Source of the DNA: a virus
Lineage: Duplodnaviria; Heunggongvirae; Uroviricota; Caudoviricetes
DNA length: 19,645 nt
Virus record (IMG/VR): IMGVR_UViG_2579778660_000002
Reading direction: 5' to 3' (one strand)
The notes beneath the pieces are model-generated. The model was not told the origin of the DNA and made no database searches. It saw only the letters and a program-made list of their open reading frames with translations. Positions within the stretch are counted from its first letter, which is position 1; each line of letters opens with the position of its first letter. This document shows positions 1,331 through 19,645 of the stretch, one piece after another. The translations under genes were made by a program, and so were the position numbers.

Positions 1331-1440
1331 GCTTTTTTATACTAAGTTGGCATTATAAAAAAGCATTGCTTATCAATTTGTTGCAACGAACAGGTCACTA
1401 TCAGTCAAAATAAAATCATTATTTGATTTCAATTTTGTCC
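1331..1440. other. attL: lambda att core GCTTTTTTATACTAA (1331-1345) followed by the lambda attP P' arm
   Basis: Exact 15-bp core directly visible; left flank ...GTTGAAGCCT matches the bacterial B arm of attB, right flank GTTGGCATTATAAAAAAGCATTGCTTATCAATTTGTTGCAACGAACAGGTCACTATCAGTCAAAATAAAATCATTATTTGATTTC matches recalled lambda P' arm (Int arm-type and IHF sites). Confidence 0.9.
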
Positions 1441-2489
1441 CACTCCCTGCCTCTGTCATCACGATACTGTGATGCCATGGTGTCCGACTTATGCCCGAGA
1501 AGATGTTGAGCAAACTTATCGCTTATCTGCTTCTCATAGAGTCTTGCAGACAAACTGCGCAACTCGTGAAAGGTAGGCGGATCCCCTTCGAAGGAAAGAC
1601 CTGATGCTTTTCGTGCGCGCATAAAATACCTTGATACTGTGCCGGATGAAAGCGGTTCGCGACGAGTAGATGCAATTATGGTTTCTCCGCCAAGAATCTC
1701 TTTGCATTTATCAAGTGTTTCCTTCATTGATATTCCGAGAGCATCAACATGCAATGCTGTTGGGATGGCAATTTTTACGCCTGTTTTGCTTTGCTCGACA
1801 TAAAGATATCCATCTACGATATCAGACCACTTCATTTCGCATAAATCACCAACTCGCTGCCCGGTAACAACAGCCAGTTCCATTGCAAGTCTAAGCCAAC
1901 ATGGTGATGATTCTGCTGCTTGATAAATTTTCAGGTATTCGTCAGCCGTAAGTCTTGATCTCCTTACCTCTGATTTTGCAGCGCGAGTGGCTGCGACCGG
2001 GTTTGTTGTTATATGGCCTTCAGCTATAGCCTCTCGGAATGCATCGCTCAGTGTTGATCTGATTAACTTGGCTGATGCCGCCTTGCCCTCGTCTATGTAT
2101 CCATTGAGCATTGCCGCAATTTCTTTTGTGGTGATGTCTTCAAGTGGAGCATCAGGCAGACCCCTCCTTATTGCTTTAATTTTGCTCATGTAATTTATGA
2201 GTGTCTTCTGCTTGATTCCTCTGCTGGCCAGGATTTTTTCGTAGCGATCAAGCCATGAATGTAACGTAACGGAATTATCACTGTTGATTCTCGCTGTCAG
2301 AGGCTTGTGTTTGTGTCCTGAAAATAACTCAATGTTGGCCTGTATAGCTTCAGTGATTGCGATTCGCCTGTCTCGGCCTAATCCAAACTCTTTACCCGTC
2401 CTTGGGTCCCTGTAGCAGTAATATCCATTGTTTCTTATATAAAGGTTAGGGGGTAAATCCCGGCGCTCATGACTTCGCCTTCTTCCCAT
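1419..2489 (-). CDS. int: Lambda integrase (tyrosine recombinase)
   Basis: 356-aa translation (MGRRRSHERRDLPPNLYIRNNGYYCYRDPRTGKEF...HLLGHKSDTMASQYRDDRGREWDKIEIK) matches recalled lambda Int almost residue for residue; ATG at 2487-2489; 3' end overlaps P' arm as in lambda. Confidence 0.95.
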   Translation of the reverse strand: MGRRRSHERRDLPPNLYIRNNGYYCYRDPRTGKEFGLGRDRRIAITEAIQANIELFSGHKHKPLTARINSDNSVTLHSWLDRYEKILASRGIKQKTLINYMSKIKAIRRGLPDAPLEDITTKEIAAMLNGYIDEGKAASAKLIRSTLSDAFREAIAEGHITTNPVAATRAAKSEVRRSRLTADEYLKIYQAAESSPCWLRLAMELAVVTGQRVGDLCEMKWSDIVDGYLYVEQSKTGVKIAIPTALHVDALGISMKETLDKCKEILGGETIIASTRREPLSSGTVSRYFMRARKASGLSFEGDPPTFHELRSLSARLYEKQISDKFAQHLLGHKSDTMASQYRDDRGREWDKIEIK

Positions 2490-2685
2490 TTCTGATCCTC
2501 TTCAAAAGGCTACCTGTTACTGGTCGATTTAAGTCAACCTTTACCGCTGATTCGTGGAACAGATACTCTCTTCCATCCTTAACCGGAGGAGGGAATATCC
2601 TGCACTCGCGTACCCATCGACGAACTGTTTCAAGGCTTCTTGGGCGTCGCTGGCGTGCGTTCCACTCCTGAAGTGTCAAGTACAT
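2467..2685 (-). CDS. xis: Lambda excisionase
   Basis: 72-aa translation MYLTLQEWNARQRRPRSLETVRRWVRECRIFPPPVKDGREYLFHESAVKVDLNRP... matches recalled lambda Xis; overlaps int start by 23 nt as in lambda; ATG at 2683-2685. Confidence 0.93.
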   Translation of the reverse strand: MYLTLQEWNARQRRPRSLETVRRWVRECRIFPPPVKDGREYLFHESAVKVDLNRPVTGSLLKRIRNGKKAKS

Positions 2686-2710
2686 CGCAAAGTCTCCGCA
2701 ATTACACGCA

Positions 2711-2733
2711 AGAAAAAACCGCCATCAGGCGGC
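2711..2733 (-). terminator. Intrinsic-terminator-like hairpin with U-tract on the minus strand, upstream of xis (tL3-like position)
   Basis: CCGCC/GGCGG stem with 4-nt loop (2719-2732); read on minus strand it is followed by TTTTTT (plus-strand A6 at 2712-2717). Confidence 0.4.
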
Positions 2734-2892
2734 TTGGTGTTCTTTCAGTTCTTCAATTCGAATATTGGTTACGTCTGCATGTGCTATCTGCGCCCACAGC
2801 ATCCAGTGGTCATAGCAGTCGCTGATGTTCTCGGCTTCGATAACTCTGTTGAATGGTTCTCCATTCCATTCACCTGTAACTCGGAAGTGCAT
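2725..2892 (-). CDS. Possible small ORF (55 aa) between ea8.5-like gene and xis
   Basis: ATG at 2890-2892, open to TGA at 2725-2727 (MHFRVTGEWNGEPFNRVIEAENISDCYDHWMLWAQ...); no convincing Shine-Dalgarno; below ORF-track size cut-off. Confidence 0.25.
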   Translation of the reverse strand: MHFRVTGEWNGEPFNRVIEAENISDCYDHWMLWAQIAHADVTNIRIEELKEHQAA

Positions 2893-2980
2893 TTATCATC
2901 GCCATAAAACAAAACTCGCCGTAGCGAGTTCAGATAAAAGAAATCCCCGCGAGTGCGAGGATAGTTACTTGTTCATATTA

Positions 2981-3262
2981 TTAATCGTCAATGTATTTTG
3001 AGCATTGTGGGCAATCATCGATCCCACAATACGATTCATATGCATCCTTTATTGCGTCGCGGGCTTCAGTAAGAGTATTGAATAAGTTGCAGCTATTATC
3101 TTTTTGATATAGGTAAGTTCCTAATTTATAAGCAGAAGAAGCATCATTTCCGCTGTCTAAAATTACATCGTTATGGATTCTGCACCTTGCAAGAACTCCT
3201 GATCCCATAAGGGTCTGCATAGCCCATTGCTCTTGATCTTCACACAAATCATGAATGCTCAT
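2981..3262 (-). CDS. Ea8.5-like small Cys-rich (zinc-finger-like) phage protein, 93 aa from ATG
   Basis: ORF-track frame starts at a GTG (3280), but an ATG at 3260-3262 preceded by AGAGAGG gives a 93-aa product, the length of lambda Ea8.5; position immediately after xis; Cys pattern including CPQC near the C-terminus. Homology not verified by search. Confidence 0.55.
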   Translation of the reverse strand: MSIHDLCEDQEQWAMQTLMGSGVLARCRIHNDVILDSGNDASSAYKLGTYLYQKDNSCNLFNTLTEARDAIKDAYESYCGIDDCPQCSKYIDD

Positions 3263-3376
3263 TTCAACACCTCTCTTCACGTTTCACACACGTTAAGATT
3301 AACAGTGTTTTTACATGCTTTGGGAGATTTATTTTATAAAAACTCTTTTAATACAAATAGATATAATAGTTCACTA

Positions 3377-4174
3377 TTATAGCTCCTTTAATCGAGGCGG
3401 TTCTGGTAGAGGCATCCAGTGGGTTACACCGCCAATTGGCTCATCGTCGTCGTACTCCAATGCGGCTATATAGAACCCGTCACGACGAGAATAAGAAATC
3501 CCGGACATTACAATGCCATCCGAAACAACAATAATGTCACCCGTTTCTTTCGGCATTCGCTCACTACAGCTTATCCAACCATCCGGAGTCACCGGAAGCG
3601 AGAACGGCAGCACATCTCTGTGAACAAGTTTTTGCTGTGACAGGTTATCCAGAACTTTCTGTACTGCTGCATCACCGAATACACCAAGCGCATCTGCCAT
3701 AACTCCTACAACCTGATAAGCCTCAGCGCATACCGTGGATAAACCATCCGGAATTACCGGAGAGTTGCCGGGTTCTTTAATGTGCAAGCGAGGCTCACCA
3801 TCTTTTGGTTCAGGCCACTGGCGCTCCATGTTGATCTTCAATTTATCTTCCATAGCAGCGGTAATTTCAGCATCGCTGATGCCAGCACGGCGCTGTGCAT
3901 CCCACAACAGGAAATGCATATCAGCCCACTCGCTGAGATCGTCTGGTTCGGCTGCGGCTTCCAGAGCCTCTTTTGAGAGGTGTTTCAGTGGACCAATGGG
4001 GCCAACGCAGCCAAATGTGGAGTCAGACCATTTGGCATGCTCGTGGCGAATCAGTTCGCGTTCCAGTGATGCCAGTGCAATTCGTGCCAGTTCCATTTGT
4101 TCGCCACGAGTAAGCCCGTTTTCAAGCGGATTTTTAATGAACAATTCAATACGTTCTTTGGTAATAGTGGTCAT
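3377..4174 (-). CDS. Phage protein with N-terminal MazG-like (DUF550-type) nucleotide pyrophosphohydrolase domain and C-terminal DUF551-type domain
   Basis: 265-aa ORF, ATG at 4172-4174 with AAGGA upstream; N-terminal all-alpha region with acidic cluster EALEAAAEPDDLSEWAD typical of MazG-like NTP-PPases; C-terminal ...GGVTHWMPLPEPP typical of DUF551 as recalled. Family assignment from memory. Confidence 0.6.
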   Translation of the reverse strand: MTTITKERIELFIKNPLENGLTRGEQMELARIALASLERELIRHEHAKWSDSTFGCVGPIGPLKHLSKEALEAAAEPDDLSEWADMHFLLWDAQRRAGISDAEITAAMEDKLKINMERQWPEPKDGEPRLHIKEPGNSPVIPDGLSTVCAEAYQVVGVMADALGVFGDAAVQKVLDNLSQQKLVHRDVLPFSLPVTPDGWISCSERMPKETGDIIVVSDGIVMSGISYSRRDGFYIAALEYDDDEPIGGVTHWMPLPEPPRLKEL

Positions 4175-4184
4175 TTGTTAGTCC

Positions 4185-4940
4185 TTAAACTGCTAGTTGC
4201 AATTGCATTTCAAAGCGGTCGCGTTGTTCACAATACGCAAGAGAACCAGGGCTATTGTGTGCCTCAATCCGTTCTACCATTAATGCTGCGCGTGTCTCTT
4301 TACTTGCAGGTGCATAAGCCCCAGACCAGGCTTTATCAATACCGATGTTTCGAGCGACGTTCGTACTATCTGCGCTGGCTAAGGGTAATTTTGTGAATAT
4401 CAGCGGATTTAACATGCGCAATCCATGTAGTTTCGTAACCGGCTGACCATGCCCATCAACAATGTGACGAATCAGGTCTTTCATTCTGGCTACCGCAAGA
4501 GTTGGGCGCTTTACGTCATAGTCGCCACAACTACCGATAGCCACTCGCGGAAACTCATTGCACAAATGAATAAATCGCGCGTCACTTTCATTCATGTGCC
4601 ACACTGGAACGCCAGCTAGTTTTCCGTGAGGCCACTCATTCAGAAGCGCATCATTTTCCTCCTCTCCGCCATCAATAATATCCGGGATAATGGCAAAATC
4701 GAATCCTGGGTGATTCTTCCAGCGAGCAACAAACTCGTAGTAATCGCTCCAGTCGATTTTGTTTTTGCCAGCTGCTTTCCAGGCGGTGAATGCACCGTTG
4801 TCCAGCGCGAACGACTGACAGTATTCAGCCGCGAGATTGATCTGGCCTGAATGCGCAAAACTGATAAACGCATGTCGCCCTTTCCATGCTCTCATTGCGC
4901 ACGTATCAGGAGTAATAGGCCCACCGTGGTAGTGAATCAT
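4185..4940 (-). CDS. Hypothetical protein with tRNA-guanine-transglycosylase-like (DpdA-like) motifs, 251 aa from the internal ATG
   Basis: ORF-track start at 4982 overlaps upstream gene by 41 nt; ATG at 4938-4940 is preceded by AAGGAGAG and sits 1 nt after the upstream stop. Ordered motifs LDNGAF, AIGSCGD, LHGLRMLNP, TNVARNIG resemble TGT motifs DSGGF, AVGG, LMGVGKP, PTRNARNG; no C-terminal zinc motif. Confidence 0.55.
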   Translation of the reverse strand: MIHYHGGPITPDTCAMRAWKGRHAFISFAHSGQINLAAEYCQSFALDNGAFTAWKAAGKNKIDWSDYYEFVARWKNHPGFDFAIIPDIIDGGEEENDALLNEWPHGKLAGVPVWHMNESDARFIHLCNEFPRVAIGSCGDYDVKRPTLAVARMKDLIRHIVDGHGQPVTKLHGLRMLNPLIFTKLPLASADSTNVARNIGIDKAWSGAYAPASKETRAALMVERIEAHNSPGSLAYCEQRDRFEMQLQLAV

Positions 4941-4941
4941 C

Positions 4942-5349
4942 TCACTCTCCTTTGATGCGAATGCCAGTAGCGCGGATTGCATCGATGACTTCAGAAACTT
5001 TGTATGCCATTACCGTTTGGTAATCATCGTGAAAATCTGTTCGATGAAGCATGCTGCTACGTTCCGGGAGCAGTATTTCCCGCGCTTCCAGTTCTGCAAT
5101 GCGCTTTTTTGCTGCTTCCAGTTCATCCAGTAATTCCAGCACGGTAGCCGGATTAGCCTTGGCAACAAAATCCCGGACTGGCTTACAATCAATCTCCGCA
5201 ATGGGTTGATTCGATGTGTAGCCATGCTGTCTTGTATAACTACCGTGACGAATAACGAAAAAATCACCATTTATTTTTTTAGCCTGCCACTTATCTTCAC
5301 CGGCTTTCTCTGCCGCTTCACGCAGTGCCTGAGAGTTAATTTCGCTCAC
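4942..5349 (-). CDS. Ead/Ea22-like phage protein (GTG start, coupled to upstream stop)
   Basis: 135-aa ORF; start GTG at 5347-5349 overlapping the TGA of the upstream gene (GTGA), GAGAGG 8 nt upstream; coiled-coil segment NPATVLELLDELEAAKKRIAELEAR as in Ea22-like proteins. Confidence 0.6.
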   Translation of the reverse strand: MSEINSQALREAAEKAGEDKWQAKKINGDFFVIRHGSYTRQHGYTSNQPIAEIDCKPVRDFVAKANPATVLELLDELEAAKKRIAELEAREILLPERSSMLHRTDFHDDYQTVMAYKVSEVIDAIRATGIRIKGE

Positions 5350-5567
5350 TTCGAACCTCTCTGTTTACTGATAAGCTCCAGATCCTCCTGGCAACTTGCA
5401 CAAGTCCGACAACCCTGAACGACCAGGCGTCTTCGTTCATCTATCGGATCGCCACACTCACAACAATGAGTGGCAGATACAGTCTGGTAGTTCAGACGAC
5501 GCATTTTTATTGCTGTGTTGCGCTGTAATTCTTCAATTTCTGATGCTGAATCAATGATGTCTGCCAT
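5346..5567 (-). CDS. TraR/DksA-family C4 zinc-finger protein (lambda Orf73-like)
   Basis: 73-aa ORF with CxxC...CxxC (CCECGDPIDERRRLVVQGCRTCASCQ), the size and motif of TraR-like phage proteins; ATG at 5565-5567. Confidence 0.7.
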   Translation of the reverse strand: MADIIDSASEIEELQRNTAIKMRRLNYQTVSATHCCECGDPIDERRRLVVQGCRTCASCQEDLELISKQRGSK

Positions 5568-5665
5568 CTTCCATTAATCCCTGAATTGTTGGTTAATACG
5601 CTTGAGGGTGAATGCGAATAATAAAAAAGGAGCCTGTAGCTCCCTGATGATTTTGCTTTTCATGT

Positions 5666-5947
5666 TCATCGTTCCTTAAAGACGCCGTTTAACATGCCGA
5701 TTGCCAGGCTTAAATGAGTCGGTGTGAATCCCATCAGCGTTACCGTTTCGCGGTGCTTCTTCAGTACGCTACGGCAAATGTCATCGACGTTTTTATCCGG
5801 AAACTGCTGTCTGGCTTTTTTGATTTCAGAATTAGCCTGACGGGCAATGCTGCGAAGGGCGTTTTCCTGCTGAGGTGTCATTGAACAAGTCCCATGTCGG
5901 CAAGCATAAGCACACAGAATATGAAGCCCGCTGCCAGAAAAATGCAT
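5666..5947 (-). CDS. Hypothetical small protein (93 aa from ATG 5947, or 71 aa from ATG 5881)
   Basis: Open frame with two candidate ATG starts, neither with a strong Shine-Dalgarno; occupies the position of lambda orf60a but no recognisable similarity. Confidence 0.4.
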   Translation of the reverse strand: MHFSGSGLHILCAYACRHGTCSMTPQQENALRSIARQANSEIKKARQQFPDKNVDDICRSVLKKHRETVTLMGFTPTHLSLAIGMLNGVFKER

Positions 5948-5957
5948 TCAGTGGTTG

Positions 5958-6149
5958 TCATACCTGGTCTCTCTCATCTGCTTCTGCTTTCGCCACCATC
6001 ATTTCCAGCTTTTGTGAAAGGGATGCGGCTAACGTGTGAAATTCTTCGTCTGTTTCTACTGGTATTGGCACAAACCTGACTCCAATTTGAGCGAGGCTAT
6101 GTGCCATCTCGATACTCGTTCTTAACTCAACGGGAGATGCTTTGTGCAT
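5958..6149 (-). CDS. Small phage protein, 63 aa (lambda orf63-like by position and length)
   Basis: ATG at 6147-6149 gives 63 aa; overlaps the upstream 63-aa ORF by 28 nt, the same overlap geometry as lambda orf61/orf63; ORF-track start at 6164 would run through the G9 tract. Confidence 0.5.
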   Translation of the reverse strand: MHKASPVELRTSIEMAHSLAQIGVRFVPIPVETDEEFHTLAASLSQKLEMMVAKAEADERDQV

Positions 6150-6313
6150 ACAGCCCCCCCCCATTTATTATTTATCTCCTCAGCCAGCCGCTGTGCTTTC
6201 AGGGGATTTCGGATTACAGAAAGGCCGGGAAATACCCAGCCTCGCTTTGTAACGGAGTAGACGAAAGTGATTGCGCCTACCCGGATATTATCGTGAGGAT
6301 GCGTCATCGCCAT
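6122..6313 (-). CDS. Small phage protein, 63 aa (lambda orf61-like by position), start overlapping exo stop
   Basis: ATG at 6311-6313; overlaps exo 3' end by 10 nt; ends just after the homopolymer tract. Confidence 0.5.
6154..6162. repeat. Homopolymer tract C9 (G9 on the coding strand) in the overlap of two small minus-strand ORFs
   Basis: Nine consecutive C at 6154-6162; lies at the frame switch between ORFs 6122..6313 and 5958..6149/6164. Confidence 0.9.
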
Positions 6314-6984
6314 TGCTCCCCAAATACAAAACCAATTTCAGCCAGTGCCTCGTCCATTTTTTCGATGAACTCCGGCACCATCTCGTCAAAACTCGCCATG
6401 TACTTTTCATTCCGCTCAATCACGACATAATGCAGGCCTTCACGCTTCATGCGCGGGTCATAGTTGGCAAAGTACCAGGCATCTTTTCGCGTCACCCACA
6501 TGCTGTACTGCACCTGGGCCATGTAAGCCGATTTTATTGCCTCGAAACCACCGAGCCGGAATTTCATGAAATCCCGGGAGGTAAACGGGCATTTCAGTTC
6601 AAGGCCGTTGCCGTCACTGCATAAACCATCGGGAGAGCAGGCGGTGCGCATATTTTCGTCGCGATAGATGATCGGGGATTCAGTAATATTCACGCCGGAA
6701 GTGAATTCAAACAGGGTTCTGGCGTCGTTCTCGTACTGTTTTCCCCAGGCCAGCGCCTTAGCATTAACTTCCGGAGCCACACCGGTGCAAACCTCAGCCA
6801 GCAGGGTGTGGAAGTAGGACATTTTCATGTCAGGCCACTTCTTTCCTGAGCGGGGCTTTGCTATCACGTTGTGAACTTCTGAAGCGGTGATGACGCCGAG
6901 CCGTAATTTGTGCCATGCATCATCCCCCTGTTCGACAGCTCTCACGTCGATCCCGGTACGCTGCAGGATAATGTCCGGTGTCAT
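6304..6984 (-). CDS. exo: Lambda exonuclease (Red-alpha)
   Basis: 226-aa translation [65 protein letters not shown]... matches recalled lambda Exo with a few substitutions; ATGA overlap with bet stop. Confidence 0.95.
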
Positions 6985-7184
6985 GCTGCCACCTTCTGCT
7001 CAGTGGCTTTCTGTTTAAGGAATCCAAGAGCTTTCACTGCTTCGGCCTGTGTCAGTTCTGACGATGCGCGAATGTCGCGGCGAAATATCTGGGAACAGAG
7101 CGGCAATAAGTCGTCATCCCATGTTTTATCCAGGGCGATCAGCAGAGTGTTAATCTCCTGCATGGTTTCATCGTTAAGGGGGGT
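6981..7184 (-). pseudogene. bet: bet (Red-beta) 3' fragment: only the C-terminal ~60-68 codons remain
   Basis: Translation [67 protein letters not shown] matches the lambda Bet C-terminus; in-frame stop immediately upstream of the homology; no gam between bet and kil. Confidence 0.85.
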
Positions 7185-7326
7185 AGTGAATGCTTTTGCT
7201 TGATCTCAGTTTCAGTATTAATATCCATTTTTTATAAGCGTCGACGGCCTCACGAAACATCTTTTCATCGCCAATAAAAGTGGCGATAGTGAATTTAGTC
7301 TGGATAGCCATAAGTGTTTGATCCAT
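7174..7326 (-). CDS. kil: Kil (host division inhibitor) homologue, 50 aa; C-terminus probably altered by the bet-gam deletion
   Basis: ATG at 7324-7326 lies inside the 3' end of cIII in the lambda kil/cIII overlap arrangement; MDQTLMAIQTKFTIATFIGDEKMFREAVDAYKKWILILK...; ORF-track frame 7174..7452 is the same frame with a spurious N-terminal extension. Confidence 0.7.
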   Translation of the reverse strand: MDQTLMAIQTKFTIATFIGDEKMFREAVDAYKKWILILKLRSSKSIHYPP

Positions 7327-7459
7327 TTTTTGGGACTCCTGGCTGATTAAGTATGTCGATAAGGCGTTTCCATCCGTCACGTAATTTACGGGTGATTCGT
7401 TCAAGTAAAGATTCGGAAGGGCAGCCAGCAACAGGCCACCCTGCAATGGCATATTGCAT
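7295..7459 (-). CDS. cIII: CIII (FtsH/HflB inhibitor), 54 aa
   Basis: Hand translation of minus strand from ATG 7457-7459: MQYAIAGWPVAGCPSESLLERITRKLRDGWKRLIDILNQPGVPKNGSNTYGYPD*, matching recalled lambda CIII; absent from ORF track because under 60 aa. Confidence 0.85.
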   Translation of the reverse strand: MQYAIAGWPVAGCPSESLLERITRKLRDGWKRLIDILNQPGVPKNGSNTYGYPD

Positions 7460-7531
7460 GGTGTGCTCCTTATTTATACATAACGAAAAACGCCTCGAGT
7501 GAAGCGTTATTGGTATGCGGTAACGCCGCGC

Positions 7532-7900
7532 TCAGGCGGCTTTGATAGTCATATCATCTGGATCAAATATTCCTGATGTATCGATATCGGTAATTCTTAT
7601 TCCTTCGCTACCATCCATTGGAGGCCATCCTTCCTGACCATTTCCATCATTCCAGTCGAACTCACACACAACACCATATGCATTTAAGTCGCTTGAAATT
7701 GCTATAAGCAGAGCATGTTGCGCCAGCATGATTAATACAGCATTTAATACAGAGCCGTGTTTATTGAGTCGGTATTCAGAGTCTGACCAGAAATTATTAA
7801 TCTGGTGAAGTTTTTCCTCTGTCATTACGTCATGATCGATTTCAATTTCTATTGATGCTTTCCAGTCGTAATCAATGATGTATTTTTTGATGTTTGACAT
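7532..7900 (-). CDS. Ea10-like protein, 122 aa (lambda position between cIII and ral)
   Basis: ATG at 7898-7900 with GAGGA 10 nt upstream; gene order cIII-ea10-ral as in lambda; identity inferred from position and length only. Confidence 0.55.
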   Translation of the reverse strand: MSNIKKYIIDYDWKASIEIEIDHDVMTEEKLHQINNFWSDSEYRLNKHGSVLNAVLIMLAQHALLIAISSDLNAYGVVCEFDWNDGNGQEGWPPMDGSEGIRITDIDTSGIFDPDDMTIKAA

Positions 7901-16740: not shown

Positions 16741-17482
16741 GTACATAAACGTACAAAATGTGATGAAAGTAGAGTGGCGTAAGCCACTATATTAAGATAT
16801 GACAATAGCGAAGAAAAGTAAATAACATTTTATGGACGTTTAATTGTTAATTATAAAAACTAGAGTGCCCGATATTGTTTATCTTGCTTTAAAATAATGT
16901 ACTCAAACCAAATTTTTGAGCTAAAAGCTCAAATAATATAAATGCAATGATAATGTTTAATAAGACAATTAGCTTGCTTTGTATTTTCATTTCGGAATAC
17001 TGTTAAGTAACTTTGATGACCCTAACAATAGATCGGAATTTTCTTAGAGTCAATGGTCAATGTTTTTGCTTGCAAAGCAAATGTTTTGGTGGTTATAAGT
17101 TGTCTTAATATAGTCACGCATGCAACTTGTTCCATGCGGAGATTAAAGATTGGAATATAACGCGAAGATGGAATTAAATTACATTTGCAATAACCAATTT
17201 ATTATTACTCAATAATTACCGATATTATTATTGTAAATTAATCATTAGAGTGCAAAAAGAAATGTAACGGCAAAATAAGAGGACGATAGCTGAGAAAAAA
17301 GCGTGCTTTCCCAATCTGGGGCAAATCACGTCTGAATGACACCTGAAAACAGGTGGTAGCCTCAAGAAGGCTTGGAATATTCTTCTTTAATGTTATGTAA
17401 TTCATTGATTTTTCGTGTACGATTTTAAGACATTTATTCCAAGAAAAATTTTTAACTCTTTGATTTTTCGACTCTGTATCAT

Positions 17483-17544
17483 CGGTCTCGAAAACCGGAG
17501 TAGGGGCAACTCTACCGGGGGTTCAAACCCCCCTCTCTCCGCCA
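17483..17544 (+). tRNA. 3' partial tRNA-Ser (serU-like): anticodon arm, long variable arm, T-arm, acceptor 3' strand and CCA; no 5' half
   Basis: CGGTCTCGAAAACCGGAGTAGGGGCAACTCTACCGGGGGTTCAAACCCCCCTCTCTCCGCCA matches the recalled 3' portion of E. coli tRNA-Ser(CGA); upstream sequence does not match the D-arm/acceptor 5' strand. Confidence 0.6.
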
Positions 17545-18128
17545 CTTTATCAATGACTTATCTCCCGACTTCCCGCCTTGCTTTTCCTAAACAGAACAAT
17601 CGTAGAATATTCTTGAAGGGTTAGATCGTCACTGTTTTCTGTTCGATACTGTGACATTCAGCACTTGATTCGCTATGGATCTGACAGGAAGGTTTTGAGC
17701 GAAAATTTGCAGTTATTCAGTTGTTTTCTTATCGGTCACCATTATTCTTTTAGACATTGATCCTACAAAGCTGCCGCAAAGTTGGTGGTGGGAACTGAAG
17801 TTGCGTAGAGAAGGGGTCAATACCCGGAGGCAAACATGGGCTGGCAAAAGTGTAGCGGTATTAGGCGCAGCTATTTAGCCTAGTTATGTTTTATGAAAAC
17901 TTGATATCATATAAGTGTCTTACTTATTGGCTGTAAATAAGTTTTTCCTAAGGAATTGTTTCTTGAGTATCATTTGTAACTGTAACGGAATTTATAATCC
18001 TTTGCTTTATTGTTACGGTATTTTTTATCACACCCTATTTTTTATGTGGTTTTTTATACTGAAGTTTGGCAAAGTGAACTTTATATGCATATACTTCATC
18101 CTGGTTTCAGTTAAGTTGGGTGGATGAT

Positions 18129-18872
18129 ATGGCAACTACATGTTCAGTTATATTGATTTTGGAGTCCTTTGATGTTTATTTCGGAAAAGAGAGTGTGTTT
18201 CTGGAGAGAGGTTCATCTGTACTTGTCGACTCTAGCTCTAGAGATTTTTTCCTGACATATCCTGAAAGAGTGATAGTGGCGGATTTTGGCGCTGAGTTTA
18301 TTAGTCGCTATTTGAAAGCTAATAACTTAAGGGATATTTCTGATTGTAGGGAATATCCATCTTATTTAAAAATAAACTTTGCTGACTTCAGTTTAATTAA
18401 AGGATTAATTAGTTGGGCTAATCACTGTGCTGAATACATAGAAATTTTTGATGAGTCTATTGCTTTTACATGTCTCTCTGCATTTTCTTCTGAAAAACAA
18501 TTTGGAGTATTTCTGTTTGAATGTTTGAAAAGCACAGGGGCTAAAGTTAAAACGATTATTCATACGGATTTATCTGCACCATGGCGTCTTAAGGATATAT
18601 CATCAAGATTATATCTCAGCGAAAGTTTACTAAAGAGGAAATTGAAAGAAGAGGGGGTATCATTCAGTAAGATCATACTTGATGAGAGGATGCAAATGGC
18701 TGAATATTTACTCAGCACTCGTTGTTATCCTATTAGTAAAGTAGCTAAGGTCTGTGGTTATGCCAGTGTTTCATACTTTACTTATGTATTTAGACGTTAT
18801 TTTGGTGTTTCTCCAAGTCAATACTCTCAGAGCAGTTCAGAAAGTAAAATTCTTACTCACCAGGGAATCTGA
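18129..18872 (+). CDS. AraC/XylS-family transcriptional regulator (Rns/AggR/AppY-like)
   Basis: ATG at 18129 with GGGTGGA upstream (ORF-track start 18120 is GTG); C-terminal double HTH ...LYLSESLLKRKLKEEGVSFSKIILDERMQMAEYLLSTRCYPISKVAKVCGYASVSYFTYVFRRYFGVSPSQY; long AT-rich upstream region. Confidence 0.85.
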   Translation: MATTCSVILILESFDVYFGKESVFLERGSSVLVDSSSRDFFLTYPERVIVADFGAEFISRYLKANNLRDISDCREYPSYLKINFADFSLIKGLISWANHCAEYIEIFDESIAFTCLSAFSSEKQFGVFLFECLKSTGAKVKTIIHTDLSAPWRLKDISSRLYLSESLLKRKLKEEGVSFSKIILDERMQMAEYLLSTRCYPISKVAKVCGYASVSYFTYVFRRYFGVSPSQYSQSSSESKILTHQGI

Positions 18873-18888
18873 TCATTGTTCTTGCCCC

Positions 18889-19384
18889 CTTATTTCCAGA
18901 CAGGGGGTGTATCTTAAGTTAACGTTACCCGCTGACGTCGATATTCTCGCGGAGAGCGATAACCCAACGCACTGTGCGGATGGTTTTCATTGTAATGTTC
19001 GATCGCCACTGCAAGATTATGCAATGCCGTTCTTACATTCGGTTTCGGCATGAACGCGATGTAGTCTTCCTTCATCGTTTTCACGAACCTTTCTGCCATT
19101 CCATTACTCTGAGGACTGCTGATTGCCGTTGTGCAGGGCTCCAGATTCAACTCTCTGGCGAACTGCCATGTTTCATGCGCTCTATACGCTGAACCGTTAT
19201 CTGTCAGCCACTGGATGGACTGTTCCGGTACTTTATCGCCAAAGCGTTTTTCTATCGCTCCTAACATGACATCCTGCACTGTCGCTTTATCGTAACCTCC
19301 CGTGCTTGCGGCCCAGTCTATGGCTTCACGATCGCAACAGTCCAGGGCGAACGTAACACGCAGTTTTGAATCGCCACGGGTTTA
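18889..19384 (-). mobile_element. IS3-family (IS2-like) fragment: terminal inverted repeat plus 3' ~155 codons of orfB (DDE transposase), 5' part missing
   Basis: Minus-strand translation ...[42 protein letters not shown]...[19 protein letters not shown] resembles recalled IS2 InsD C-terminal half; 18891-18913 TTGCCCCCTTATTTCCAGACAGG resembles the IS2 terminal repeat; homology stops near 19384. Confidence 0.7.
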
Positions 19385-19429
19385 ACAGACACCTCAGAGT
19401 CATTTAAGATGGCTTAAAGAGAGGTGCCC

Positions 19430-19645
19430 ATGAGCGGTAAGCGTTATCCCGAAGAGTTTAAAACTGAAGCAGTCAAACAGGTTGTTGATCGCGGTTATTC
19501 TGTTGCCAGCGTTGCAACACGTCTCGATATCACCACCCACAGCCTTTATGCCTGGATAAAGAAGTACGGTCCGGATTACTCCACTTTTTCATCAAGCCAA
19601 TCCGCCCACCACTGCATCATTTCTCTGCGCTTATCGAAATACTGA
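19430..19645 (+). CDS. IS3-family transposase OrfA (HTH), apparently truncated or disrupted after about 48 codons
   Basis: ATG at 19430 preceded by AAAGAGAGG; MSGKRYPEEFKTEAVKQVVDRGYSVASVATRLDITTHSLYAWIKKYGPD is a typical IS3-family OrfA N-terminus; the tail DYSTFSSSQSAHHCIISLRLSKY is atypical; opposite orientation to the orfB fragment. Confidence 0.65.
   Translation: MSGKRYPEEFKTEAVKQVVDRGYSVASVATRLDITTHSLYAWIKKYGPDYSTFSSSQSAHHCIISLRLSKY

Follow-up and report, generated by a model that had tools for sequence, protein, structure and literature searches.

Host DNA next to an integrated phage can be carried off by that phage, as in the lambda-bio and lambda-gal transducing phages, which arise by imprecise excision of the Campbell type and in which the host DNA is contiguous with an att junction. 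In lambda-bio, the bio genes are carried on the side distal to the tail genes. Another kind of trace is left by phages that integrate into tRNA genes, and the pseudo-tRNA genes pauD at DLP12, ptwF at CP4-6, and pawZ at CPS-53 are att relics of this sort in Escherichia coli K-12. They are partial 3' copies of tRNA genes that stem from integrase-mediated insertion, they have no tRNA function, and they mark true boundaries between prophage and chromosome at the cognate tRNA gene. Integrases that cross over in the anticodon loop reportedly leave a block of identity that extends from the anticodon stem to the 3' end of the tRNA. The tRNA gene considered here is serU, a documented prophage site in Shiga toxin-producing E. 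coli (STEC) (PMC7067040, PMC8065619). At the attR end of one such prophage, SerU-LTIIb (GenBank KU052038.1), the record shows a tRNA-Ser pseudogene of 62 nt, placed between the tail-fibre genes and yodB.

The locus described here lies in a stretch of 19,645 nucleotides from the IMG/VR virus record IMGVR_UViG_2579778660_000002, called the window below. On the plus strand, positions 17483-17544 hold the sequence CGGTCTCGAAAACCGGAGTAGGGGCAACTCTACCGGGGGTTCAAACCCCCCTCTCTCCGCCA, which corresponds to the last 62 nt of K-12 serU, the gene for tRNA-Ser(CGA) (b1975), and is hereafter called serU'. Very probably, serU' is the fossil attR junction of a former serU prophage, which was captured together with a 278-bp host spacer into a phage genome and now resides inside a defective prophage at the lambda attachment site (att-lambda). 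Like the K-12 relics, serU' is a partial 3' tRNA copy, but whereas those stand at true prophage boundaries, serU' is internal to a prophage of another att specificity. It shares with the attR of serU prophages, such as SerU-LTIIb and those of STEC, the same 62-nt core, oriented alike: the tail-fibre end is to the left and the spacer to the right. However, the attR junctions of serU prophages are found at serU, run into yodB, and belong to elements whose far end bears an intact serU and a cognate integrase, whereas the junction in the window is located at att-lambda, has a flank that stops after 278 bp at the scar of an insertion sequence (IS), and is accompanied by neither a serU-type integrase nor an intact serU. 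As in lambda-bio, the host DNA adjoins an att junction and lies on the tail-distal side of the phage genome. By contrast with the transducing phages, the event here would be natural, ancient, and fixed, only 278 bp of host DNA are left, and the int/att region has been swapped for lambda or thrW modules.

The identity of the fragment is supported both by the tRNA gene itself and by its surroundings. The gapless alignment with K-12 serU, a gene of 90 nt, begins at the second base of the anticodon stem (5' strand) and ends with CCA, and 61 of the 62 positions are identical, the sole mismatch being a T-to-C change in the T-loop at position 17528. The first 28 nt of serU, which comprise the 5' strand of the acceptor stem and the D arm, are absent from the window, and the sequence 5' of 17483 is unrelated to serU. 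This similarity does not result from chance, since the match to the serU locus does not stop at CCA but extends 278 bp farther, into the serU-yodB spacer up to position 17822, with 10-11 mismatches over 340 bp. The core and this 278-bp stretch are matched in 5405 of 5426 complete E. coli genomes, at their serU locus. The original prediction, a model's note made from the window's letters, was thus right to report an orphan 3' piece of a tRNA-Ser gene, covering only the part from the anticodon arm to CCA, within an AT-rich tract. This tract, with a GC content of 0.30-0.41 across about 16600-18400, is real but composite, since it consists of five unrelated pieces, namely a phage arm, the tRNA core, host spacer, an IS scar, and the region upstream of a regulator gene, patE. 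The tRNA searches proposed in the same note as a check gave no tRNA call: ARAGORN called 0 tRNA and 0 tmRNA over the whole window, and Rfam gave no tRNA at the gathering threshold or at E<=10, where it yielded just a sub-threshold antisense match to a plastid motif. The fragment is nonetheless real by its alignment to K-12 serU.

As for function, a tRNA-Ser gene needs a complete cloverleaf, and here 62 of 90 nt are present behind an unrelated upstream sequence, with no tRNA called. Because the 5' strand of the acceptor stem is missing, no aminoacylatable tRNA can form. The fragment can be folded into anticodon, variable, and T hairpins, with a stability no better than that of shuffled sequence (z = -0.76), and no terminator-like site was found on the plus strand at or after the core. 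Today, serU' is most likely inert, giving no tRNA, no better-than-random fold, and no terminator.

Comparison with genuine serU loci indicates what the fragment was. To its left, positions 16624-17482 (+) correspond to the AT-rich phage arm (P arm, GC about 0.30) of a serU-integrating lambdoid phage, and this same arm is found at genuine serU attR junctions in strains H2 and AST240 and in 832 genomes overall. At the serU locus of H2, a lambdoid prophage ends with stfR, tfa, the same AT-rich arm, and the same core, followed by yodB. AST240 harbors a complete lambdoid prophage at serU, with the order mtfA, intact serU, and a tyrosine integrase gene (annotated as frameshifted) at one end and J, lom, stf, tfa', cargo, arm, serU', and flank at the other. 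When attL and attR of AST240 were aligned with the window and with K-12 attB, the block shared by all corresponded to exactly the 62 nt. To the right of the core, positions 17545-17822 (+) are host DNA, the native serU-yodB intergenic spacer of 278 bp (B' arm), colinear with the serU loci of K-12, avian pathogenic E. coli (APEC) O78, H2, the LT-IIb host, and MB15. Judged from these alignments, serU' is an att core left by a tRNA-targeting tyrosine integrase of the type carried by serU-integrating lambdoid phages. The three parts stand in the order P-O-B': a core equal to the attL/attR/attB block, a genuine attR arm on its left, and 278 bp of native spacer on its right. This order puts the element leftward of the core and the host rightward, so what the core terminates is the tail-fibre end of that element and not an island on the other side. 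It is not a live boundary, for the locus is att-lambda, the window contains no tRNA gene, and its only integrase is of the lambda type. In APEC O78, the host serU is located about 1.25 Mb from the att-lambda prophage.

The best matches to the window come from APEC O78-like E. coli. It is 99.96-100% identical to APEC O78 (NC_020163.1), two differences aside. First, APEC O78 carries an IS2 near xis (window 3067-3073) that is absent from the window. Second, 4.0 kb comprising a terminase remnant, J', lom, and the 5' part of stf have been lost in the window lineage only, at the junction 14162/14163, as located by blastn against the APEC O78 prophage locus (L001), where window 3067-14163 corresponds to 2468-13564 and window 14162-19645 to 17563-23046. 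The source strain is thus a close yet distinct relative of APEC O78. Strain ACN002 is 100% identical to the window over 17800-19645.

These relatives also place serU' with respect to the ends of the prophage. The left boundary is a lambda attL core (B-O-P') at 1331-1345 (+), an exact GCTTTTTTATACTAA followed by the lambda P' arm. Next to it lie the gene for a lambda-type tyrosine integrase (1419-2489, minus strand), with Pfam Phage_integrase and lambda Arm-DNA-bind_1 domains and annotated as such in APEC O78 and phage ev099, and xis (2467-2685, minus strand), annotated as excisionase in the same two genomes. The annotated context in APEC O78 is a defective lambda/DLP12-like prophage followed by ybhB-bioA-bioBFCD-uvrB, that is, the classical att-lambda site. 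Its attR lies at L001 23271-23285, where the lambda P arm is followed by ACTTTTTTATACTAA, with one mismatch in the core, and then by the bacterial arm CTTGAGCG. This site corresponds to window coordinate about 19870, i.e. ~225 bp past the end of the window and ~2.3 kb to the right of serU'. To the right of the fragment, the APEC O78 locus contains no second integrase and no second serU core, and ybhB-bioA come directly after attR. Since attL is at 1331-1345 and attR beyond the window end, a single prophage encloses all of the window from 1346 onward. The exact attL with its P' arm, the integrase with its Arm-DNA-bind_1 domain, and the attR of APEC O78 together identify the window as a deleted, defective lambda-type prophage at att-lambda. 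It is the integrated form of an ev099/mEp332-like phage, with serU' in its b-region.

The same stretch is present in free phages. In a search of a phage collection, PhiR70_1 (PV340577.1), ev099 (NC_049953.1), and mEp332 (PV340541.1) matched window 16480/16498-17900 at 98.7-98.9% identity. They carry, at about 99% identity, the same succession of arm, serU', flank, ISEc33 scar, AraC-family gene, IS3 scars, lambda attP, and int, but their genomes are complete and viable with an intact tfa, whereas the window is integrated, has lost head and tail genes, has a truncated tfa, and bears the additional 4-kb deletion. The vegetative map of ev099 reads J, lom, tail fibre (stf), tfa, the bracket of arm, serU', flank, and IS scar, the AraC-family gene (gp29), transposase fragments, an exact lambda attP core, int, xis, exo, and bet. 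In these phages, the fragment is thus located between tfa and the AraC-family gene, about 2 kb upstream of the lambda attP and int. Window 17400-19645 aligns colinearly with ev099 over 2246 bp, of which 13 are mismatched; beyond the window end, ev099 continues with P arm, core, and P' arm, whereas APEC O78 continues with P arm, core, and bacterial arm. In all three phages, the core and the 278-bp spacer are internal, so that host DNA lies inside a packaged phage genome. One of them, mEp332, is a plaque-forming phage with lambda immunity that is kept as an MG1655 lysogen (PMC3442831).

The captured spacer ends at an IS scar, at 17823-17879 (+). These 57 bp are the right terminus of an internally truncated ISEc33-like element (IS630 family), made of the last 33 nt of the ISEc33 transposase open reading frame (ORF) plus the IS terminus. 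The boundary 17822/17823 reads as a deletion junction at which the spacer was joined to the interior of the IS. The alternative of an IS630-family insertion at a TA in the flank was rejected, since the flank meets the inside of the IS and the 57 bp form the right end of ISEc33. Exactly the junction of the window recurs in ev099, O157, and strain E2; in E2, the module is located near pao genes and has an IS1 inserted in the flank. Moreover, the flank carries six single-nucleotide polymorphisms (SNPs), at 17692, 17735, 17759, 17766, 17767, and 17770. They occur in the window, in ev099, and in both the att-lambda prophage of APEC O78 and the Sp1-type copy of O157, but the six genuine serU loci compared, those of K-12, APEC O78 (both copies), H2, the LT-IIb host, and MB15, lack them. 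The phage flank allele was found at genuine serU in none of the 5426 complete E. coli genomes, where the best full-length match reached 98.0%, nor at serU in species-representative genomes. It is carried by 34 IMG/VR viral contigs, among which no left arms occur other than that of the window and the O157 one described below. Among E. coli genomes, the carriers number 496. The phage-borne copies share common descent, and the shared flank/ISEc33 junction and the six SNPs support a single origin. Their common descent also accounts for the constant spacing between the core and patE: in each of the 30 IMG/VR contigs that extend far enough, patE begins 644-646 nt from the start of the core. The core itself is decaying by mutation: changes in the T-loop differ by copy (T to C at 17528 in the window only, TT to GG in O157), and in one IMG/VR contig the core has been cut to its last 21 nt while patE is intact.

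The gene that follows, at 18129-18872 (+), encodes a regulator of the AraC/XylS family (Pfam HTH_AraC and HTH_18) that is identical at 245 of 247 residues to Sakai ECs_0287 (309101-309844). PatE, the product of Z0321 on OI-8, is an AraC-like activator of the acid-resistance genes gadBC, gadE, and hdeAB (PMC10877973). The gene in the window appears to be its ortholog, ECs_0287 being equated with Z0321 by position (OI-8/CP-933H/Sp1). In O157:H7, the distal end of the thrW prophage, called Sp1 in Sakai, consists of serU', the 278-bp flank, the ISEc33 scar, the AraC-family gene, and an ISEc48 scar. This patE end of Sp1/CP-933H (OI-8) is therefore the module of the window: it shares the junction and all six flank SNPs, and its regulator is 99% identical. 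It differs from the window in being located at thrW and not at att-lambda, in having a left arm of the pinE/GIY-YIG type, from an e14-like phage, and in its core, where tRNA identity starts 3 nt earlier and the T-loop reads GG for TT. The pinE/GIY-YIG arm is a genuine serU attR arm too. Indeed, with a chimeric probe, 13 genomes were found to join it to native flank past the 278-bp point, and in MB15 it stands at the genuine serU attR, adjoining yodB. The AraC-family gene is phage cargo and not part of a neighbouring island.

How the junction was captured, in what order, and how its arms were exchanged we infer as follows. A lambdoid prophage would once have resided in the serU tRNA gene, its attR junction consisting of phage arm, tRNA core, and host flank. 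This junction, with 278 bp of the serU-yodB spacer, would then have been taken into a phage genome by illegitimate recombination. This could have occurred by imprecise excision of the lambda-bio type from a serU lysogen, or by a double crossover between a phage and the chromosome of a serU lysogen, homologous in the tail genes and illegitimate between the flank and an ISEc33 copy upstream of patE. Both routes give the same product and are indistinguishable here. In the phage, the junction would have been fused to patE through the truncated ISEc33 copy, and the lost int region would have been replaced by a new attP-int module, the lineage now having a lambda-type int and attP, as in ev099, mEp332, and PhiR70_1. 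The occurrence of two left arms on one module is best explained by a later crossover, within the 340 bp of core and flank, with another serU-resident prophage. serU' is not used by the resident lambda integrase. Its only remaining activity is likely to be that of a 340-bp patch of homology to serU loci, through which the patE module would have been re-joined to the distal end of one serU prophage or another. This would account for a left arm of the tfa type here and of the pinE/GIY-YIG type in O157:H7 Sp1.

Several points weigh against this scenario. No donor chromosome with the phage-type flank allele, or with ISEc33-patE downstream of a genuine serU, was found among the 5426 E. coli genomes and the species-representative genomes, so that both capture followed by fusion to patE and a donor in which patE already lay downstream of serU are possible. 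Likewise, the phage collection contains no free phage that combines this arm with an intact serU-type attP (arm, core, P', and int). Instead of an exchange of arms, there may have been two separate captures from a donor chromosome in which the flank/IS/patE junction already existed. Evidence for the lambda attR comes from the near-identical APEC O78 locus, the window itself ending before the corresponding position. Finally, the serU relic of APEC O78, which shares the stf/tfa' truncation of the window, is not explained by the model and hints at more traffic between the two loci than is reconstructed here.

This relic (L007, NC_020163.1 2790001-2840000, at 3950-6164; to be compared with window 16417-17822) belongs to a set of serU loci with arrangements of their own. 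It begins with an intact serU and ~450 bp of native flank, followed by 27 nt of the stf end (same allele), tfa', the arm, a second 62-nt serU core, native flank, and yodB. In the comparison with an intact tRNA-Ser locus that the original prediction had suggested as a check, the 3' segment is thus duplicated at this serU, and the arm is 100% identical to that of the window, but both flank copies are of the chromosomal and not of the phage allele. Simple integration and excision do not account for the duplication of the flank, which might be due to ectopic repair copied from the att-lambda prophage. An invertase half-site of the hix/gix kind at the relic junction was entertained only as an idea and dropped. 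In the serU prophage of AST240, a gene for a sensor diguanylate cyclase lies between tfa' and the attR arm (L013, NZ_AP043633.1, 1564-2895), a cargo gene at the same att-proximal position. In UPEC957C (L015, NZ_CM177858.1 790000-833000), a lambdoid prophage ending in the same arm and core is in tandem with the tcpC/TIR-domain island, which starts directly after the core and has its own integrase; zinT follows and yodB is missing. That this island had landed in a phage-borne core at att-lambda was considered and rejected, since the locus is a genuine serU carrying a prophage and the tcpC island in tandem.

Among the alternatives to capture of a now inert junction, one assigns a present role to the core and flank, which would be kept as a portable attB-like site or homology handle, used by serU integrases or by RecA/Red, for moving patE between phages or for landing serU islands in a prophage. 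In its favour, a single module occurs with two different left arms, both of them genuine serU attR arms, and the switch point between them must lie in or to the right of the core and to the left of 17692, since all copies are identical there. In addition, a serU attR core has been reused by a second element in UPEC957C, and the anticodon stem-loop part of the core is unmutated in all sampled copies. It is in this part that tRNA-targeting integrases of this sort are expected to cut. However, no element was found inserted at the phage-borne core among the inspected genomes or the 34 viral contigs, homologous recombination suffices for the exchange of arms, only two arms recur, mutations accumulate in the T-loop, and the core is truncated in one contig. 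We regard this role as unlikely. If it were true, captured att junctions would serve quite generally to transfer cargo from phage to phage across differences in integration specificity, an implication that remains as doubtful as the role itself.

According to a second alternative, serU' reached att-lambda by a rearrangement in situ between a serU prophage and an att-lambda prophage, through inversion and re-inversion or ectopic gene conversion, with no passage through a phage particle. In its favour are the serU relic of APEC O78, with its identical arm and the same stf/tfa' truncation, and the fact that recombination between prophages is common in E. coli (PMC7067040). Against it, the six SNPs of the att-lambda flank are absent from both serU copies of APEC O78 but present in ev099 and O157 Sp1, and the same arrangement and flank/IS junction recur in free phages, in unrelated lineages, and at other integration sites. 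Local exchange may account for the identity of the arm, but not for the origin of the core-flank-patE module, and as a full explanation it is quite improbable.

The original prediction had proposed a third possibility, that an integrase left the fragment as a duplicated att core, which would mark where a second element or island abuts the lambda-like prophage, and it had suggested looking for a second integrase beyond the window. On this view, the AraC-family gene would belong to the island. The fragment is indeed an integrase-type att core, as borne out by the attL/attR/attB block of AST240 and the pseudogene of KU052038.1. Furthermore, serU is a known hot spot for prophages and islands, including the tandem of UPEC957C, and the region to the right of the fragment is AT-rich and scarred by IS, as in many islands. 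Nevertheless, only the first half of the proposal, that an integrase left this core, stands. Rightward of the fragment, APEC O78 has the AraC-family gene, IS scars, the lambda P arm, core, and bacterial arm, ybhB, and bioA, and the second integrase sought beyond the window is absent from this near-identical locus. By the orientation of the core, the element that it terminates is leftward and the host flank rightward, and plaque-forming phages carry the entire stretch within their genomes. The fragment does not lie between a prophage remnant and the regulator, since both it and the regulator are inside the prophage, and an island edge at this position is extremely unlikely. Equally implausible is a functional RNA or regulatory element (a tRNA-derived RNA, or an insulator, terminator, or leader for patE), for although the distance of 644-646 nt between core and patE is constant and anticodon, variable, and T hairpins can form, the fold is no better than that of shuffled sequence, the plus strand has no terminator-like site from the core onward, copies differ in their T-loop mutations, one contig keeps patE intact despite a truncated core, and no aminoacylatable tRNA can form without the acceptor 5' strand.

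The preferred reading, a fossil attR captured by a phage, changes the map of the locus, which is one prophage and not a prophage plus an island, with the regulator, presumably an ortholog of PatE, which activates acid-resistance genes in enterohaemorrhagic E. coli (EHEC), as phage cargo. It also provides a rare sequence fossil in support of the textbook idea that phage genes adjacent to att were picked up from the host by imprecise excision, since an old attR and its host flank are still readable inside viable phage genomes and in O157:H7 Sp1/CP-933H. Partial tRNA att relics and the capture of att-adjacent host DNA are both well-known kinds of feature, and the link between serU' and patE in viable phages is a modest addition to them. 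The annotations of Sakai, APEC O78, and ev099 that were inspected contain no feature for the serU fossil. More generally, orphan tRNA fragments should not automatically be taken as boundaries of elements when prophages and islands are delimited.

The remaining features of the right part of the window fit around this junction. The tail-fibre end begins with a truncated side tail fibre ORF at 14233-16443 (+), the 3' part of stf, which appears in the ORF list, has a C-terminal Pfam Peptidase_S74 domain, and is annotated as tail fibre in APEC O78. It is followed at 16492-16623 (+) by tfa', what is left of the tail fibre assembly gene at its 3' end (APEC O78 L001 19893-20024), which has no N-terminus and aligns with the 3' portion of tfa in H2, where the gene is intact. 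Peptidase_S74 is an endosialidase-type intramolecular chaperone, and only this 132-nt tfa remnant follows the fibre ORF; with a self-chaperoning fibre, tfa may have been dispensable before the prophage decayed.

On the other side of the ISEc33 scar, the region upstream of patE (17880-18128, +) is conserved in ev099 and O157, and its best sigma-70-like promoter match is found at 18066-18095. The string at 18048-18062, GGTTTTTTATACTGA, resembles the lambda core with 2 mismatches and overlaps the -35 element of this promoter-like match; the sequence next to it, AAGTTTGGCA, resembles the start of a P' arm. The string was rejected as a real att site, being conserved upstream of patE in ev099 and O157 Sp1, whose true att sites are elsewhere. 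It may be due to chance or may be a much older relic.

Downstream of patE, two IS3-family scars were located from the APEC O78 annotation shifted by 3401. The first is an ISEc48-like integrase-core fragment at about 18914-19366 (minus strand), supported by ISEc48 matches and annotated in Sakai as 'ISEc48 partial', and the second is an N-terminal transposase fragment at about 19430-19576 (+). The last 290 bp before the lambda P arm (19359-19645) match parts of other cryptic prophages of K-12, namely the insX/yagB region of CP4-6 at ~97% identity and 74 bp near intS of CPS-53-like elements at ~93%. These matches point to further mosaic scars between patE and attR.

In the left part of the window, the cIII thermoregulator (Rfam Lambda_thermo) is intact at 7414-7472 (minus strand, 88.5 bits). 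An ompC/nmpC-like porin gene at 8799-9881 (minus strand) lies beside a truncated Q antiterminator gene, and according to the APEC O78 annotation a DLP12-like lysis cassette (essD, rrrD, rzpD, and bor) comes after this porin/Q region.

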